Shown here piece after piece: positions 11,225 to 18,738 of a DNA stretch of 20,000 nt. Origin of the DNA: an uncultured virus (IMG/VR IMGVR_UViG_3300029911_000018) (lineage: Duplodnaviria; Heunggongvirae; Uroviricota; Caudoviricetes). A model generated the notes under the pieces. It was given only the letters and a program-made list of their open reading frames with translations. It had not been told where the DNA came from and made no database searches. The stretch's first letter is position 1. Every line of letters starts with the position of its first letter. The translations under genes were made by a program, and so were the position numbers. The stretch lies in IMG/VR virus record IMGVR_UViG_3300029911_000018; one strand, 5' to 3'.

Positions 11225-13531
11225 ATGGCGCAACTGGTTAACAACAACTCCGAGTATTACCGCGACCCGTTACACTCTCCGAGTGCTCCGAACAACGCAG
11301 AAGAGGCATATCAAGCCTTTGCTGCCACTGTTCTGAGCGTGGACTGGGAGCGCGAAGTTGTTAGTCTAGTGGATTTAAGAACCAACTCGGTTCTAGTGGA
11401 CGTAAACATCCTTCCTTGTGTTGCAAACTCGGGAGAGTCCACGGATGTAACCATGCCAGAAGAGGGCTCAACATACCTTTGCCTCCCAGTTCAGTACACC
11501 AAGGGATACATGCGGGTTGCACTCGTCACTCCAATCCTTACAGACACTGTACGCGCTAAGGATGCCATTGGTTATCGACTGCTGGATAAAACCCCGGTGT
11601 ACAACGTCCGTAAGAGGGGAAACTATCGGAAGGCATACCCCGGTCAGCAATCCGTATCTATGTCCTCAGGTTACACCGAAAAGAAGGACGGTGGTTGGGA
11701 CAAGTCTTCACAGGATTTGAGCCGAGACTGGCTCAACATTCATCGTCGTCAATGGACGCAGATGACAGGACGACGAGTGACATACACAGACTCAGGGTTG
11801 ACCTTTCAAGGCTCTGTGAGCCGCCCTGACGCGGCGACAGTAACCCCGGTCACCCTCCCGGATGGTTCCAAGGAATCTGTCGTGTATCTCCAGCCCGGAG
11901 CCCAACCCAGCGACCGTGCGCTGAGTGGGAAGCAGGATGTAATACCCTTCACGGAAAACATGACCCGTGTGCAGGAATACGCTTTGGATTACCCTCTACC
12001 TTCAGAGATACTCCAAACTGATTTACTGGATTTTGTTTTAGGCACGACGGCTGATCCATGGGCACGCACCTCCATTAAAACCACGGGTGGGATTTCTTTT
12101 GATAGTGAATCCTACCTCGTCAGCCAAAGTTACGATCATCCGGTTTCCGGCACCCCCCTTGGGCCAACCCTTAATGAAGGAATCACCCCTCAACGTCGTG
12201 GGTTCATTGTTGAAAGCGCAACAGGCACCTTGGTGGGTTACAACCGCTTCGACAAAAGCACGTATGGTAATGTGCTCAAGCCGGTTCTCACCCCCTACAC
12301 CCAACTTGGACGTTTCGGTGCCGACGTTGAGTCAGGATATCTAACAGTTAATGCATCGACTGACCACGTGGAAGCTCGTCTCGCGGCTGCGGCTTTCGCT
12401 TTGAGATTCCCTTACGAACAGAATACCACCCGGTTCGATGTTACCAAGGAGGGCTTCACCTCCTTTGAAATCGGGGCTACGCTGCCCAAGGAGAACATCC
12501 CACTGGCTGGAGGATATGAGCACCCACATGGGGCTGGCCGGTCGCTGGAAGGGCATCTTGTGGGCTCCCTGAAGCTGATTGTAGGTAAGAATCGAGATGA
12601 AGAAGACGCCATCGACCTTCAAGCTCTCGGTCAGACCATACTTCGCCTTGGAGCCGACGACACCTCGCTACCTAACCGGGGTCGAACTGTGATGACTCAG
12701 ACCCGCAGCAAAGGGGATGCGGTACAGAATAGGACACTTAATTATTGGTCGGCCCCTAAGTGTGGAATTGGAGATGCCGGAGTTTTGACCAACAAGACAG
12801 GCATGGAGAACATTTCATTGCGTATGGGGTTGGACGGGGGACTCGTTGCTCGTGTGGGAGCCCGTGATCCTTCTGTGCTTCGTAAGCATTTGATAAATGG
12901 CTATCAGGACGGTCCGGGCAAGACCGCCTATCCGGCAACTAGTTCAAGCCGCATCGACTCACATTCACCCGGTCGTCCGGTATACGCCTCAGGAGATGCC
13001 ACGTATCGGTTTAATGACCTTACACAGGTAGGCACTCCACAGATGCCAGAGATTGCAGGGTACTATGCGTGGAGTGGTAAACCTGTAACGAAGGCCGATG
13101 CAACTGGGCTTTCTGTGGACTTGCACGCGGTGCGAGATATTCTTTTGCGTGTCGGAGCCAACGCCGATGGTCAATCTCTATTGCTTGACTTTCTCGGAGG
13201 TATAGTAGCGGCTCTTGGAGCAGACACCTACGGTCGTTCCATTACAGCGGCTCTGGCCGGTGGTGCCGAGATAACCATTCAGCCCAACAAGCAGGGTAAG
13301 GCACTCCGTTTGGAAATTAACGGCGACATCGACATCACACATAAGGGGAACTTGCAGTATTTATGCACAGGGGATTTTATCACTGAATGCACCACGTTGC
13401 GTCATATCACAAAGACTGATGAGGTCAGGTCGGCTCAAAAGATTATTCACTCAGCCTTGACGCGGTGTACGATTGAGGCCCCAGACATCGTTCACAATCA
13501 AGGACTCTATCAGTCAGACGAGGATAGCTAA
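11225..13531 (+). CDS. Central baseplate spike protein (gpV/gp5/VgrG C-terminal-like)
   Basis: N-terminal OB-fold-type pattern (ATVLSVDWEREVVSL...MPEEGSTYLC) and C-terminal short beta-strand repeats (LEINGDIDITHKGNLQYLCTGDF...TIEAPDIVHN). Follows the hub. Confidence 0.7.
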   Translation: MAQLVNNNSEYYRDPLHSPSAPNNAEEAYQAFAATVLSVDWEREVVSLVDLRTNSVLVDVNILPCVANSGESTDVTMPEEGSTYLCLPVQYTKGYMRVALVTPILTDTVRAKDAIGYRLLDKTPVYNVRKRGNYRKAYPGQQSVSMSSGYTEKKDGGWDKSSQDLSRDWLNIHRRQWTQMTGRRVTYTDSGLTFQGSVSRPDAATVTPVTLPDGSKESVVYLQPGAQPSDRALSGKQDVIPFTENMTRVQEYALDYPLPSEILQTDLLDFVLGTTADPWARTSIKTTGGISFDSESYLVSQSYDHPVSGTPLGPTLNEGITPQRRGFIVESATGTLVGYNRFDKSTYGNVLKPVLTPYTQLGRFGADVESGYLTVNASTDHVEARLAAAAFALRFPYEQNTTRFDVTKEGFTSFEIGATLPKENIPLAGGYEHPHGAGRSLEGHLVGSLKLIVGKNRDEEDAIDLQALGQTILRLGADDTSLPNRGRTVMTQTRSKGDAVQNRTLNYWSAPKCGIGDAGVLTNKTGMENISLRMGLDGGLVARVGARDPSVLRKHLINGYQDGPGKTAYPATSSSRIDSHSPGRPVYASGDATYRFNDLTQVGTPQMPEIAGYYAWSGKPVTKADATGLSVDLHAVRDILLRVGANADGQSLLLDFLGGIVAALGADTYGRSITAALAGGAEITIQPNKQGKALRLEINGDIDITHKGNLQYLCTGDFITECTTLRHITKTDEVRSAQKIIHSALTRCTIEAPDIVHNQGLYQSDEDS

Positions 13532-13716
13532 TGAATGTCTATTACGCAGTTGAATTCGATAGGGATATGGTATGCTTCATCGCGATGAGTCTTGATTACT
13601 CCGTGGTTATGGTTAAAACAGAGGAGTATATGAGTGGGAGTTGTTACGAATGGAGTTTGAATGAAAATACGAATCCATGTAGGGATTGATTCTGTGCGGG
13701 AGCTAATGAATGTCTA
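13526..13716 (+). repeat. Perfect 16-bp direct repeat AGCTAATGAATGTCTA (13526-13541 and 13701-13716) bounding a 175-bp unit
   Basis: Read directly from the sequence. The left copy contains the spike stop codon and the right copy contains the ATG of the 995-aa gene. Confidence 0.95.
13531..13689 (+). CDS. 52-aa micro-ORF inside the 175-bp insert (MNVYYAVEFDRD...NPCRD)
   Basis: Translated by hand, below the ORF-track cutoff. TAATG overlap with the spike stop codon suggests translational coupling. Confidence 0.5.
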   Translation: MNVYYAVEFDRDMVCFIAMSLDYSVVMVKTEEYMSGSCYEWSLNENTNPCRD

Positions 13717-16697
13717 GTACAGGATTGCCACCGGGTTTGCAAGCTGCTGAACTCTGGCCGATTAAGGCCAAGGGCGCGGTGCAGCGTCTAAACCCTCTTG
13801 GTGATCCGGCTGTCGAGCAGTTCTACCACCAAGCGATGGAGCAGGGACGTTTTGCTGAGAGAAGCATTGCTGACGCTCAGCACTGGCTTGCTCAAAAACA
13901 AAAAGACTTGATGCAAAAGATTCTCATTCACACCCGTGTGAACTCTCTCGCGGTGAATGGGCAATTGTCGAACCCGGCTAGGGCTATTAAATACGTCGCC
14001 GACTCGGGCACAATCATCCGGGACATCAATCAGTTTCAGAATGAAATCACTGGTCTTATAATGGCGGTCACTCAGAACATCGCCATCCTTAAGGGTATTG
14101 AGTCCAGCATGTTGTCTTTGGTAACCCAAAACCTAAACTCACTCGCTAATATTCTTCAGCAGATATGCAATTGGCATCTACCCACATTGGCCTCTCTACC
14201 TAATTTGCTCAAGGACACTATCTGGCATTGGAACGGGGTGATCTTCGCGCCTCTATCTTCTTTTGAAACCCTTCTTAATACGATAGAGAGTTTGGGTAAG
14301 CTCAGCAACCTGACTTCCATTCCCTCACTGCTGTCCAATTTTAATTTCAGCCATTGCATCTTGTTAAGCCCAACACTCCCAAGTACAGGCACGGGCGCGA
14401 CCACCGGACTCACGAATCAACCCCCTCCTGCGAGTGTCACAACTTACAGTGGATTGAACCTTGGCACCACACTGATTGTGCCTCCACTAAGCGGCACAAT
14501 TTCCACGGGGAATGAAACAGTGGCTCAGATGCAAGCACTGACTTCTGTCCCAGTGTATTTATCCCCAGTTGCATCGGCACCCGTGCCACCGGCTACATTT
14601 CCGAACCCATTCAATGTGAACAGTTCCATGCTTGGTTCGGTGCCTGACCCGACAACGATCATCTCTAATTATCAGATGCCGCCGACAACGTATCAGGACA
14701 ATATTGTTTGTGTAGTTCCACAAACTCGATCCGTTTCAACTCCCAACGATTTGCAAAAGGCGTTGGCTGAGTATATCAATTTGGGTACGATTGTTAAATC
14801 CAACTTCGACCCTAACATGACAGCAGAGTGGTTGTTTTATTTGAATCTCAATCGTGTAGGGCGTGCTGGAACATGGTTGTCAAGCTTCCAGTCGGCTTAC
14901 ACAACGTTTGTGATCCCCTCTCTCAACTATTTGGCTAACAATCCTGTGCCTTGGAATTGTGTTCTACCAAGTACAGCGGTTAATGACACACCAACTGCGA
15001 TTCCTTTACTGGCAAACCTCACGACTAATCCGACATTTGTGCAAGGGAATATTCTCTGGATGTTGTCATATATTGAAGCCAGTCTACTGGGTTACACTCG
15101 CAACACAACGTGGGATGCCTACGCCAGTGGGGACTTTGTTTCGGGATTCACGGGTACTGATTTGGATTATCGGTCAACAGCGATTAACACAGCAACGACA
15201 ACGACTGTAATTCTTGGAGAAACAACGGCCACCTACCCGGTACCTTGTACATTTCCTTCCGCCATGGGGGCTGTGTTGCAAGAAGTCATCGCGATTGCAG
15301 CTATCAACATTCAGAACACTCCCAGCTATACCACAAATCGACCTCAGTTCAAGTATGTTTACAACCAGTTTGCCGTTGCTGCTGAGGTTGACCGCTTCTC
15401 ACAGTTTTGGAGAACGTTCAATGCGAACCTACAAGCTCTGTTGCTTCAAGACTCTTATCTGATTCAGTTTGTTGCCACGTATTCAGCTTCTCTGGATTCA
15501 GCGATAGACCCACTGGGTGATCCAACAATCTACAATCAACTCCAGACTGATGCTGCCACACGTAATCGTAGTTGGACGCCGGGAGATGAGTTGCTTACAC
15601 TCCCTGTGGTACCTAACGTGAGTTACACCACTACGAATAATCCAACAAACACTGGGTGGACGGGTGTTTCATTTGACCCAGTCACATATCTCAGCCGTCC
15701 GGATATTCAACAACTCCCAATTCCAGTGCAGGTTGCCATGCTCCGCACTAATTTGAGCTATGCGGCGACATTAGAAATGGCCTCGGCGGTAAGTACAGCG
15801 ATTCAAAATTCGATTCAACAAAGCCAAGCCATTGTCCAGAGTTTTCAAAATGTCGGGTTCTCGGTGGAGGTTGATGCAGCCTCTGATGTGGTGCCGGTGG
15901 GTTCCTCAGGACTTCAGGTGTCCTTCGATCATATCAACTATGATATGAGTGGAAATGTTACGAGCCCTGATACTTTCACAATTCAGACAACAGGTAATTA
16001 CGCTGTTAACGTAACATTGAATTGGGGATCAGGGGTAGCTGGCGTTCGCACCGGCACTGTGTTTTTGAATGGGGCCACTGTGCTTGCTGCTTCCTCCACA
16101 GAGGGTACTCAAGCAGGTCCAACCTCTCTTCAAATATCCCTCACGTCGTATTTCAATCAAGGGGATGTCATGACAGTGGTGGCTACGCATAACCTTGTTA
16201 CATCTCAGACCATCGTTGCCGGAAGCGCCGTTACTGCTACGCTCACAGATACGACAGTTCCAAGCACAAGCACGGGTGTTCCGTCTAACACGGGCACAAG
16301 CTCCACACGAACCTTTATAGCAGATGCCACGCTCGTCCCACTCACTGCCCTTGCAGTAGGCTCAGATGGTAAAGTAACAGCTATTGATCCCACTACGGTT
16401 CAGACGAACGGTGGCGACCCTATCTATCCAATTGTCACTGGCGTCTCGTTGTCGTCAGCGACTACGGGGGAGAGTGTTACTGTGGCGACTTATTACGGCG
16501 GTGTGTATGAGTACGACAGTGCCAGCTTCACAGTCGGCGGGTTGCTTTATGCGGGGGTGGGTGGTGTTCTCACGCAGGACTATGCTACCATCATTTCAAC
16601 TTGTCAATGGGTTGTGGTCGTAGGCCGTGCTATCGCATCGAACCAGTTCATCTACGAACCACACATTCCAAATTTGACTAACCTTGGGACTTTTTAA
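13710..16697 (+). CDS. Large virion structural protein with C-terminal C1q/TNF-like and beta-clip (DUF2190/cement-like) domains; possible fiber or adhesin
   Basis: 995 aa. C1q-like pattern VSFDHINYDMSGNV...FTIQTTGNYAVNVTL...YFNQGDVMTV. The terminal domain has GVSLSSATTGESVTV...FTVGGLLYAGVGGVLT...VGRAI. The N-terminus is helical. Confidence 0.6.
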   Translation: MSSTGLPPGLQAAELWPIKAKGAVQRLNPLGDPAVEQFYHQAMEQGRFAERSIADAQHWLAQKQKDLMQKILIHTRVNSLAVNGQLSNPARAIKYVADSGTIIRDINQFQNEITGLIMAVTQNIAILKGIESSMLSLVTQNLNSLANILQQICNWHLPTLASLPNLLKDTIWHWNGVIFAPLSSFETLLNTIESLGKLSNLTSIPSLLSNFNFSHCILLSPTLPSTGTGATTGLTNQPPPASVTTYSGLNLGTTLIVPPLSGTISTGNETVAQMQALTSVPVYLSPVASAPVPPATFPNPFNVNSSMLGSVPDPTTIISNYQMPPTTYQDNIVCVVPQTRSVSTPNDLQKALAEYINLGTIVKSNFDPNMTAEWLFYLNLNRVGRAGTWLSSFQSAYTTFVIPSLNYLANNPVPWNCVLPSTAVNDTPTAIPLLANLTTNPTFVQGNILWMLSYIEASLLGYTRNTTWDAYASGDFVSGFTGTDLDYRSTAINTATTTTVILGETTATYPVPCTFPSAMGAVLQEVIAIAAINIQNTPSYTTNRPQFKYVYNQFAVAAEVDRFSQFWRTFNANLQALLLQDSYLIQFVATYSASLDSAIDPLGDPTIYNQLQTDAATRNRSWTPGDELLTLPVVPNVSYTTTNNPTNTGWTGVSFDPVTYLSRPDIQQLPIPVQVAMLRTNLSYAATLEMASAVSTAIQNSIQQSQAIVQSFQNVGFSVEVDAASDVVPVGSSGLQVSFDHINYDMSGNVTSPDTFTIQTTGNYAVNVTLNWGSGVAGVRTGTVFLNGATVLAASSTEGTQAGPTSLQISLTSYFNQGDVMTVVATHNLVTSQTIVAGSAVTATLTDTTVPSTSTGVPSNTGTSSTRTFIADATLVPLTALAVGSDGKVTAIDPTTVQTNGGDPIYPIVTGVSLSSATTGESVTVATYYGGVYEYDSASFTVGGLLYAGVGGVLTQDYATIISTCQWVVVVGRAIASNQFIYEPHIPNLTNLGTF

Positions 16698-16723: not shown

Positions 16724-16897
16724 ATGGCTGATGCTATTTTGGTCGGTGAAGTATTGGTTATTCCAACTACCAAGGTGTGTGAGTGTGGACGTAAGTGTAT
16801 AGATTATGCTTCAAACTACTTAGACCCTTATGTAGTTTGTAGCGGGTGCTTAGAGGATATTTGCACTTGTTCTAAACTTCGACGGAGGAAATCATGA
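16724..16897 (+). CDS. 57-aa Cys-rich micro-protein (MADAILVGEV...CECGRKC...CSGCLEDICTCSKLRRRKS)
   Basis: Translated by hand. GAGG SD upstream, ATGA overlap with the next gene, seven Cys. Confidence 0.65.
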   Translation: MADAILVGEVLVIPTTKVCECGRKCIDYASNYLDPYVVCSGCLEDICTCSKLRRRKS

Positions 16898-17100
16898 AAG
16901 TGTTAGTTTTGCAGGATGATTTGTTTACCTATCTTCAGCACGTTATACGTGCTTACGCCGGTAGCGGCATCGACCCAGATGAAGGTTTAGCCGTTTACCA
17001 ACTTAGTCAGGCACTCAAAGTCGTTAAGACGGTGGACGACGCTCTCATTGCGAAGCCAGAGGCCCCGGAAAACGTAGATGGGGAAAAATCGAAGGGCTAG
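16894..17100 (+). CDS. 68-aa hypothetical protein
   Basis: GGAGG SD at 16884-16888 and ATGA coupling to the upstream ORF. Confidence 0.75.
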   Translation: MKVLVLQDDLFTYLQHVIRAYAGSGIDPDEGLAVYQLSQALKVVKTVDDALIAKPEAPENVDGEKSKG

Positions 17101-17797
17101 AGCTTATGCTATATAACGAGCAGTGGGATCAGGAAACTATTGACCGGATGATACCGGACTTGTCTGAACGGCTGCACTTAGTGACGATGGTTGTCCATGC
17201 GAGAGACTACCTACGCTCAAGCAGTGGAGTATATGCCGACCGCATGAACGCTATTGGAATCCTCGGCGACGGATTGAAAAACATGTTAGAGCGTGGGGCC
17301 ACGGGACTCGAATGGTGGACACTCAGACATCGCCTGACCGGCAAAGAACTTCAATCAAACGATTGGTTGGACAAATATAAAACCAGTTGGATCACCGCTC
17401 GTGAGGCCGAGGACAAGCGGAACAACAAGCAGCGTTAATCCAATAGCTGACTAAAGTTCACGGTCGCGCCGTGAACAATTCCAGTTCGACACGCAATAGA
17501 ACCACGCCGGGAGAAAGTATCCCATACGTATTGAGGGTTGGAGAGTAGACTGCGGCTGTATGCATAGTATAGTAGTTGTGTCGCCAGCGGATCATTCTGC
17601 ACAGCAAGCTCCCACATTCCTGCACACTTCAAGTCATGTTGTTGAGCATAATCCAAGGCATTGACGATGCTTGGCACCACGCCGGGGGCAAGAGGAGCCA
17701 CTTTACTCATCCCTCCGCTCTGAGTTACAAGGTCAAAGAAGAACGATATGACACGGGTGTTACTCGCATTGTTGGGGAAAAATCGAAGGGCTAGAGC
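17079..17797 (+). repeat. Perfect 25-bp direct repeat TGGGGAAAAATCGAAGGGCTAGAGC (17079-17103 and 17773-17797)
   Basis: Read directly. One copy forms the 3' end and stop of the 68-aa ORF, and the other lies inside the minus-strand lysin gene. Confidence 0.95.
17106..17438 (+). CDS. 110-aa hypothetical protein
   Basis: Fills the gap between the 68-aa ORF and the lysin. Its stop codon overlaps the lysin stop in the palindrome TTAA (17435-17438). Confidence 0.7.
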   Translation: MLYNEQWDQETIDRMIPDLSERLHLVTMVVHARDYLRSSSGVYADRMNAIGILGDGLKNMLERGATGLEWWTLRHRLTGKELQSNDWLDKYKTSWITAREAEDKRNNKQR

Positions 17798-18202
17798 CTG
17801 AGCTTGATGTAGTATAGTGTTCGTCGCGTAGGCCACCTGAGCATCGATGGACGCTTGTTGCTTTAACATAGCTTGCCAACAAACTTTCGCTGCCGGGTCA
17901 ACGTTGGTGGTACCGTCTTGAATATAATGTTGGATACACCACTGAATAGCTTCTGCTGGCTGCAAAGAGGCAAATTGTTTGATGTTGGATTTGAAGTAGG
18001 TTTGCATCTTCGGCCATGTCATGGTCGCGGCAATATCGGTGAGTAGGACTTGAAGTGTACCTGACCCAGCATTCCATTGCAGAATTCCGGCTGACATTCC
18101 CATGCCATCAGAGTTCCCAGCTAGTGTATCGTATGCGGGAATCCCATCCTCAAACGTTCCTGTGATTTTGACGCACAGTTCGACCAGACTTTTGTTATCC
18201 AT
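17435..18202 (-). CDS. Lysozyme-superfamily (GH46/chitosanase-like) glycoside hydrolase, probable endolysin
   Basis: ITGTFE...Y..LAGNSDGMGMSAGILQWNAGSGTL mirrors the E...DGxGxxxG catalytic pattern of GH46-like enzymes, followed by FFDLVTQSG. SD AGAGGA lies 6 nt before the ATG at 18202. Confidence 0.7.
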   Translation of the reverse strand: MDNKSLVELCVKITGTFEDGIPAYDTLAGNSDGMGMSAGILQWNAGSGTLQVLLTDIAATMTWPKMQTYFKSNIKQFASLQPAEAIQWCIQHYIQDGTTNVDPAAKVCWQAMLKQQASIDAQVAYATNTILHQAQALALRFFPNNASNTRVISFFFDLVTQSGGMSKVAPLAPGVVPSIVNALDYAQQHDLKCAGMWELAVQNDPLATQLLYYAYSRSLLSNPQYVWDTFSRRGSIACRTGIVHGATVNFSQLLD

Positions 18203-18661: not shown

Positions 18662-18738
18662 TGGTCCCCATCGTGGGATTCGAACCCACACTGAGCGGAT
18701 TTTAAGTCCGGTTCCTCTGCCAGTTGGGATACATGGGG
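18662..18738 (-). tRNA. tRNA-Leu(UAA), short variable arm, encoded CCA
   Basis: Minus-strand cloverleaf CCCCATG TA TCCCAACTGGCAGAGGA A CCGGA CT TAA AA TCCGC TCAGT GTGGG TTCGAAT CCCAC GATGGGG A CCA; 77 nt. Confidence 0.9.

Follow-up and report, generated by a model that had tools for sequence, protein, structure and literature searches.

The window analysed here, a 20,000-nucleotide (nt) stretch of the uncultured Caudoviricetes record IMGVR_UViG_3300029911_000018 from IMG/VR, carries a small insert between the gene for a 768-amino-acid (aa) protein and the gene for a 995-aa protein. The insert lies between two direct copies of the stop/start junction of these genes and holds a predicted open reading frame (ORF) of 52 aa. 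The junction is an insertion hot spot in the peat jumbo-phage family to which this phage belongs. We give about an even chance to the view that the insert is a one-off capture of a small ORFan cargo by short-homology recombination, and ordinary gene capture, not a mobile circle, is the likely kind of event.

The sequence AGCTAATGAATGTCTA forms an exact 16-bp direct repeat at 13526-13541 and 13701-13716, with a spacing of 175 bp. The chance expectation for an exact 16-mer pair at most 500 bp apart is 0.0018 per 20,000-nt window. The repeat, which an earlier reading made from the sequence only had already reported, is in fact longer and matches at 19 of 20 bp (13526-13545 versus 13701-13720); the three additional identities beyond the exact core were equalled in 0.4 % of shuffles. 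The sole mismatch, T13542 versus G13717, decides between TAT and TAG, so that the translation is M-N-V-Y at the left copy and M-N-V-stop at the right. That reading also described both neighbours as translationally overlapped, which holds only on the left, where the TAA of the 768-aa gene overlaps the ATG of the 52-aa ORF in a true TAATG stop/start overlap. On the right, the 52-aa ORF stops 20 nt short of the start of the 995-aa gene, and this start is preceded at 7 nt by a GGGAG of its own. Compared with the usual TAATG of the relatives, both copies in the window hold an extra AATG. The features are as follows, with Shine-Dalgarno abbreviated as SD.

11225..13531, plus strand: 768-aa gene, conserved across the family, its TAA within the left repeat
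13520..13524, plus strand: GAGGA, SD-like, 6 nt ahead of the ATG at 13531 (from the sequence)
13526..13545, plus strand: left repeat, exact over 16 bp (13526-13541), with the TAATG stop/start overlap at 13529-13533
13531..13689, plus strand: 52-aa ORFan, coupled to the upstream stop, predicted only (ORF list, searches, shuffles)
13542..13700, no strand assigned: unique core of 159 bp, poor in C, for which no second copy, donor or RNA structure was found
13661..13717, plus strand: 18-aa ORF, with GGAG at 13652-13655, 5 nt before its ATG at 13661 (from the sequence)
13698..13702, plus strand: GGGAG, SD-like, 7 nt before the start of the 995-aa gene (from the sequence, putative function)
13701..13720, plus strand: right repeat, exact over 16 bp (13701-13716), containing the start codon of the 995-aa gene
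13710..16697, plus strand: 995-aa gene, which follows the 768-aa gene in most relatives and has no family match

An alignment-based scan for the same pair of genes in relatives resulted in 72 loci. Four of them end inside the 768-aa gene, and the other 68 collapse to 43 distinct junctions, with L122 and L153 counted as TAATG overlaps. The two genes abut directly at 26 junctions, 16 of which do so by TAATG, the commonest state; five junctions have spacers of 24-87 nt and 12 hold more than 100 bp of other DNA. These 12 divide into six GIY-YIG genes and six unrelated inserts, namely that of the window, ORFs of 34 aa (hydrophobic), 85 aa (acidic) and 187 aa, a multi-ORF stretch and about 0.7 kb with no evident ORF. 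At the control junction upstream of the 768-aa gene, for which values are lacking in two of the 43 cases, no insert above 100 bp was present (0/41) and the largest spacer was 69 nt. The difference gives a Fisher p of 0.0002, calculated on rows that are related and not independent. The interpretation of the sequence-only reading is borne out in part: this is an insertion with a duplicated junction, insert-free relatives exist, and the circular donor that it envisaged is a possible route.

Five of the GIY-YIG calls at the junction are above the Pfam cut-off and one is at E 0.002; one of the genes is a 276-bp remnant. We noted junction GIY-YIG genes at L109, L123, L132, L148, L150, L151 and L043, in several separate lineages. 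In L109, L123, L132 and L148 the gene runs into the 995-aa homologue through a TAATG overlap. The last residues of the 768-aa gene recur at the end of the endonuclease gene in L022/L123, with TAATG behind them, and this duplicated gene end is an 11-bp repeat with one mismatch. No convincing flanking repeats were seen at eight other GIY-YIG loci of the family, where several ORFs were mis-picked. The 34-aa and 85-aa ORFs, from two other lineages, both start on the ATG of TAATG and another TAATG precedes the next gene, with little beyond TAATG common to the two ends of either insert. The 85-aa insert has a diverged 88-aa cluster member, and a search for its cargo elsewhere returned two loci, both at this same junction. 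In a tree of 21 rows (L053 was left out as too short, and the gap values of L042 and L053 were not used), the window falls in a clade of three (support 100/100), each member of which has a different junction, and one phage with a GIY-YIG gene has as its sister a phage with an empty junction (99/97); the inserts therefore arose several times. Among further loci, L136 and L139 have alike gene ends, with the genes 2 nt apart in the former and the stop followed by at least 1.8 kb with several small ORFs in the latter. The 768-aa homologue is longer by about 12 unrelated codons at L039:2820-2880 and by about 21 at L046:2680-2750, and these extensions are perhaps scars of lost inserts.

With endonuclease genes at 6 of the 43 junctions, one of them already decayed to 276 bp and one with a duplicated gene end, the insert could itself be what is left of a GIY-YIG homing-endonuclease gene formerly at the junction. 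We consider this very unlikely. A profile built from 11 N-termini of the family gave the 52-aa ORF a score of -2.1 bits, which 77 % of shuffles equalled, but recognised the known remnant, our positive control, with 31.3 bits. When the core DNA was aligned with both strands of 17 junction regions (34 tests), the lowest P was 0.015. Moreover, a near-perfect repeat is at odds with a core so old that it is no longer recognisable.

For the favoured capture, we suggest the following course. The ancestral site would have been a bare TAATG overlap, and the donor a small gene-sized piece of DNA resembling both junction halves, possibly a mini-circle. A phage RecA-like protein or break repair may have joined it to the genome. 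A RecA-family gene is present in the same contig, above the Pfam cut-off. Exchange driven by homology across short diverged matches, through Rad52-like enzymes, is supported by PMC3945230. The GIY-YIG nucleases resident at this junction in relatives may supply nearby breaks. As to persistence, the old SD and the stop/start overlap would launch the cargo ORF, while the right copy would provide the 995-aa gene with an SD-like motif at suitable spacing. The GAGGA at 13520..13524 probably served the initiation of the 995-aa gene in the ancestor, and the GGGAG at 13698..13702 likely keeps that gene translated; we propose that the insert was retained because both translation signals were rebuilt. 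It would then be a passive passenger, rarely able to loop out by way of the 16-20 bp match. A Campbell crossover and a target duplication cannot be told apart by the sequence itself.

Regarding the coding potential of the insert, we kept the repeats fixed and shuffled the core in 3,000 and 12,000 replicates. An ORF of at least 52 aa from the ATG of the repeat appeared in 2.6 % of the 3,000 shuffles and 2.2 % of the 12,000, so that ORF length would lend modest support to a real cargo gene. A gene-like codon signal relative to the wrong frames (2 % score as well) was discarded, as it was lost under the composition-matched control. An open frame of 61 codons on the minus strand was likewise rejected as the true gene; it has no relative and no family, and its score in the ESM Atlas was 0.79.

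The core is unusual in composition, with 11 % C against 26 % genome-wide, and so low a C content occurs in only about 0.1 % of the 159-nt windows of the genome. No second copy of it was found in G000-G002, and there was no match in G003. The best hit among phage records (blastn, tblastn) had an E of 2, plasmid records gave no match, the best Rfam hit had an E of 1.5, and fold z-scores of -0.46 and +0.50 point to no stable RNA structure. A self-splicing intron, ribozyme circle or other RNA element was dropped on the same grounds, having neither an Rfam match nor a stable fold. Comparison also ruled out a tandem array or a decayed duplicate of either neighbour gene. Nine tests for a patchwork of local templates gave no significant result (best P 0.04), and short self-repeats in the insert are slightly in excess (P about 0.03).

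The searches with the 52-aa ORF were similarly negative. A word-index search of proteins of 28-91 aa returned a single candidate, the protein itself, and none was found at 92-2000 aa. HMMER over 1.84 billion representatives recovered only the protein itself besides a repetitive 363-aa protein (E 1e-4), which we dismissed on inspection as a chance match. The top score in the ESM Atlas was 0.84, under the useful range, and among viral contigs only this phage was hit. A 10-residue match in a GTDB genome sits in an unrelated long frame and was also put down to chance. The cluster members of the protein comprise one variant with a single residue changed.

It is possible, though we would not call it probable, that no cargo gene was captured and that a staggered break was instead filled with a non-coding piece of DNA, either foreign or scrambled. 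The repeat would then be a target duplication of 16-20 bp, the ORFs would be fortuitous, and a single base change would have opened the 52-aa frame. Indeed, the lone mismatch of the 20-bp repeat is the very base that turns TAG into TAT. The lack of a homologue in any searched frame, the non-significant codon score of the 52-aa ORF against matched shuffles, and the odd make-up of the insert, with the excess of self-repeats mentioned above and of SD-like/ATG pairs (P=0.011), all fit such a fragment, which moreover would not depend on donor and target being alike by chance. On the other hand, only 2-3 % of shuffles yield an ORF this long, small inserts found here in relatives resemble genes (e.g. 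the 85-aa ORF with its diverged 88-aa member), and a local template for the core was not found. The fragment also requires an earlier AATG duplication, seen in no relative.

The sequence-only reading went further and saw in the insert a circularly permuted gene. Its observations hold: the 52-aa and 18-aa ORFs read the repeat in the same frame, and the 175-bp unit closed as a circle gives a single 67-aa ORF, in which the two are fused only on the circle. The interpretation fared less well. A 175-bp circle bearing a gene start, or a 67-aa gene exceeding one turn, would have integrated inside its own coding sequence and become permuted, which we find unlikely. The one 67-aa ORF has a GGAG 5 nt ahead of its start, and the 52-aa ORF alone would, in the circle context, have just 3 nt between GGGAG and ATG. 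An in-frame upstream ATG at least 15 codons off occurs in 14 % of shuffles and an SD-bearing in-frame upstream extension in 2-3 %, which is the best point favouring the permuted gene. A donor that held the 16-mer would furthermore match both halves of a bare TAATG and could explain the extra AATG of the two copies. Several results speak against the circle. The 52 residues shared with the fused 67-aa product, which is the part that the homologue searches used, have no homologue in the 1.84 billion representatives (the repetitive chance match aside) or in longer proteins. A circle ORF of at least 67 aa arises in 6.4 % of shuffles and is thus near chance; given a first ORF of at least 45 aa, 25 % of shuffles attain this length. 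For the 12 codons private to the 18-aa ORF, the codon score is lower than in shuffles (P=0.65). Its SD is not singled out because it belongs to one of five SD-like/ATG pairs within the insert, where 1.3 are expected. Such a count, five per 175 nt at 13542-13716, is matched by only 0.1 % of genome windows. A scan of viral contigs for the 16-mer found 16 loci, two of which are this phage; the other 14 are unrelated single copies with flanks like neither insert end. Finally, the circle joint was seen in none of the four runs described below.

The insert is real and, with no variant seen, apparently fixed. It is identical in four other assemblies (L001, L002, L036 and L037), and the 52-aa protein occurs on 17 contigs, the longest of 310 kb. 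All 24 listed runs are peat metagenomes or a peat metatranscriptome, and 16 of them contain at least half of the sequence words. We examined four of the 24, three of DNA and one of RNA, as contigs at a depth of 3-7, at which rare forms are lost. In each of the DNA runs (X5, X6 and X7) a single contig runs from one repeat through the insert to the other. In RNA run X24 the sequence at 13656-13806, across the right repeat, shows no difference; this coverage cannot show transcription. An assembly artefact, which the sequence-only reading had allowed for, is thus practically excluded to the extent that short-read assemblies allow; the only point in its favour is that some records come from one habitat and perhaps from the same samples, and the three bridging runs are not marked as possible sources.

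These data also bear on an actively excising cassette with a core like a phage attachment site (att), mobilised by a site-specific recombinase. The direct repeats have the right geometry for it, excision would leave both genes intact, and the genome record is only about 24 % complete. Nevertheless, we consider such a cassette hardly credible. No skip joint, circle joint or loose end was found in any of the four runs, in contigs of a depth at which rare circles are invisible. A search aimed at tyrosine integrases found none in the five records, two of them relatives that are 99-100 % complete, while all 14 control genomes gave a signal. There are no inverted repeats in 13500-13740, and the 16-mer has no copy in the 75-kb contig beyond the two. 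The excision and the free circle envisaged by the sequence-only reading were not seen in the runs at this depth.

Several observations weigh against the favoured capture. The 52-aa ORF is without a homologue and the core without a donor. The codon score of the ORF is not distinguished from composition-matched shuffles (P=0.22), and a single-sequence structure model of the peptide was uninformative, with a predicted local distance difference test (pLDDT) of 55 and a predicted template modelling score (pTM) of 0.27. The rarity of the SD-bearing extension among shuffles belongs here as well. At the level of the junction, the sequence-only reading had predicted that removal of the insert would restore TAA TGA ATG, the exact single repeat copy. 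None of the 42 other distinct junctions has it, so the comparison of the locus in related phages yielded insert-free relatives and no pre-insertion allele; the nearest form is a 12-bp version without the extra AATG in L022/L123. The two closest relatives are 90 % and 85 % identical over 330 aligned aa, with no relatives between 90 % and 100 % identity in our sample, and the extra AATG in both copies stays unexplained because both of them have altered junctions. Two of the 12 insert-bearing junctions, L139 and L151, whose loci did not yield a 995-aa homologue, could be rearrangements. With respect to the source of breaks, free-standing endonucleases of T4 cut hundreds to thousands of bp from the insertion site (PMC2988022), and a cut at the junction itself is therefore hypothetical, as is any link to cutting by the resident GIY-YIG family.

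The window forms the terminal part of a virus record of 75 kb, which CheckV rates as about 24 % complete. The genes of the operon stand in the order 1118 aa, 452 aa (SLT domain), 428 aa, 968 aa, 768 aa and 995 aa, and this order suggests a tail or baseplate role. By the same gene order the 768-aa gene is likely a baseplate or spike gene. The label 'spike' given by the sequence-only reading is unconfirmed: the 768-aa protein matches nothing in Pfam at E<=0.1 and hits no named PHROG, the family alignment has no PDB match, and 'baseplate assembly protein' is weakly matched in 7 of 17 relatives (best E 0.0044). In the 75-kb contig there are 32 transfer RNA (tRNA) calls, with several genes each for Leu, Pro, Asp, Ala, Glu and Val; positions 18662-18738 of the window are listed with them. 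G001 reaches about 32 kb past the right end of the window (L066:1-12146, L065), and no insert copy was found there.

Further small features were noticed. A repeat at 17079-17110 and 17773-17804, exact over 25 bp and 91 % identical over 32 bp, looks like a short templated patch. Its first copy forms the last codons of a 68-aa ORF at a place where G003 has about 480 bp more, and the second lies within a 257-aa minus-strand gene that was not found in G003. Just 3′ of the 995-aa gene, at 16724-16897, is a Cys-rich ORF of 57 aa, poor in C, where G003 has another gene; this is a possible second insertion slot. Outside the window, at G000:27908-27997, an exact 45-bp tandem duplication lies within a reading frame beside a GIY-YIG-like stretch.

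In the ordinary case, the insert is a fresh, near-perfect example of the gain of a small orphan gene at a stop/start junction in uncultured peat jumbo phages. There is a small chance, about as low as that of the permuted circle above, that it is the fossil of a 175-bp mini-circle whose 67-aa gene was longer than the circle and which integrated within its own coding sequence at an endonuclease-prone junction. If true, this would be a direct route from mini-circles to new, permuted orphan genes. The hot-spot series, with six GIY-YIG and six other inserts beside the insert-free junction, raises the question of whether homing endonucleases seed gene capture.

Several known systems can be compared with the insert. 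In the PeSL cassettes of T4-type phages, short homologous repeats with translation-start signals flank an ORFan; the cassettes excise and integrate via a mini-circle by host or phage recombination, with circles down to 1 in 100,000 virions (PMC2839356). The ORFan of the window is likewise placed between short repeats holding translation-start signals. However, PeSL repeats have a promoter and a stem-loop and recur often, whereas the window has one pair, at which neither a plus-strand promoter-like site nor a terminator was found; the promoter scan gave one minus-strand 9/12 site, with 0.7 expected. MPME1 and MPME2 are elements of about 440 bp with terminal inverted repeats and a 123-aa ORF, found at many sites (PMC4351075). 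They resemble our insert as very small single-ORF insertions in phage genomes and differ from it, as the insert has direct repeats, no inverted repeat and one site. Free-standing GIY-YIG endonucleases of T4-like phages occupy junctions of conserved or structural genes; mobE is coupled by UAAUGA, and such TAATG(A) overlaps are frequent (PMC2988022, PMC10448857). The same enzyme class occupies this very junction in six relatives, while the insert of the window holds no nuclease or recognisable remnant of one.

The closest parallels come from Cluster O mycobacteriophages. Gene 14 of Corndog is an insert of 126 bp with a 17-bp direct repeat that is single in relatives, and gene 60 of YungJamal has imperfect 24-bp repeats and is located among tail genes; the proposed origin is recombination between the phage and a partner in which a similar sequence occurs (PMC4351075). 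As in the window, a small gene stands between two copies of a stop/start junction in a structural-gene setting, with the native start in the right copy and the left copy slightly altered. The duplicated junction of Corndog gene 14 and its relatives with adjacent genes both have their equivalents here (26/43 for the latter); no relative holds the complete repeat exactly once (0/42 other junctions). The cargo of the window, unlike theirs, is without a homologue, and its junction is a family-wide hot spot. The anatomy of the insert is thus already published for Corndog gene 14 and YungJamal gene 60, and its hot-spot context is the new result.

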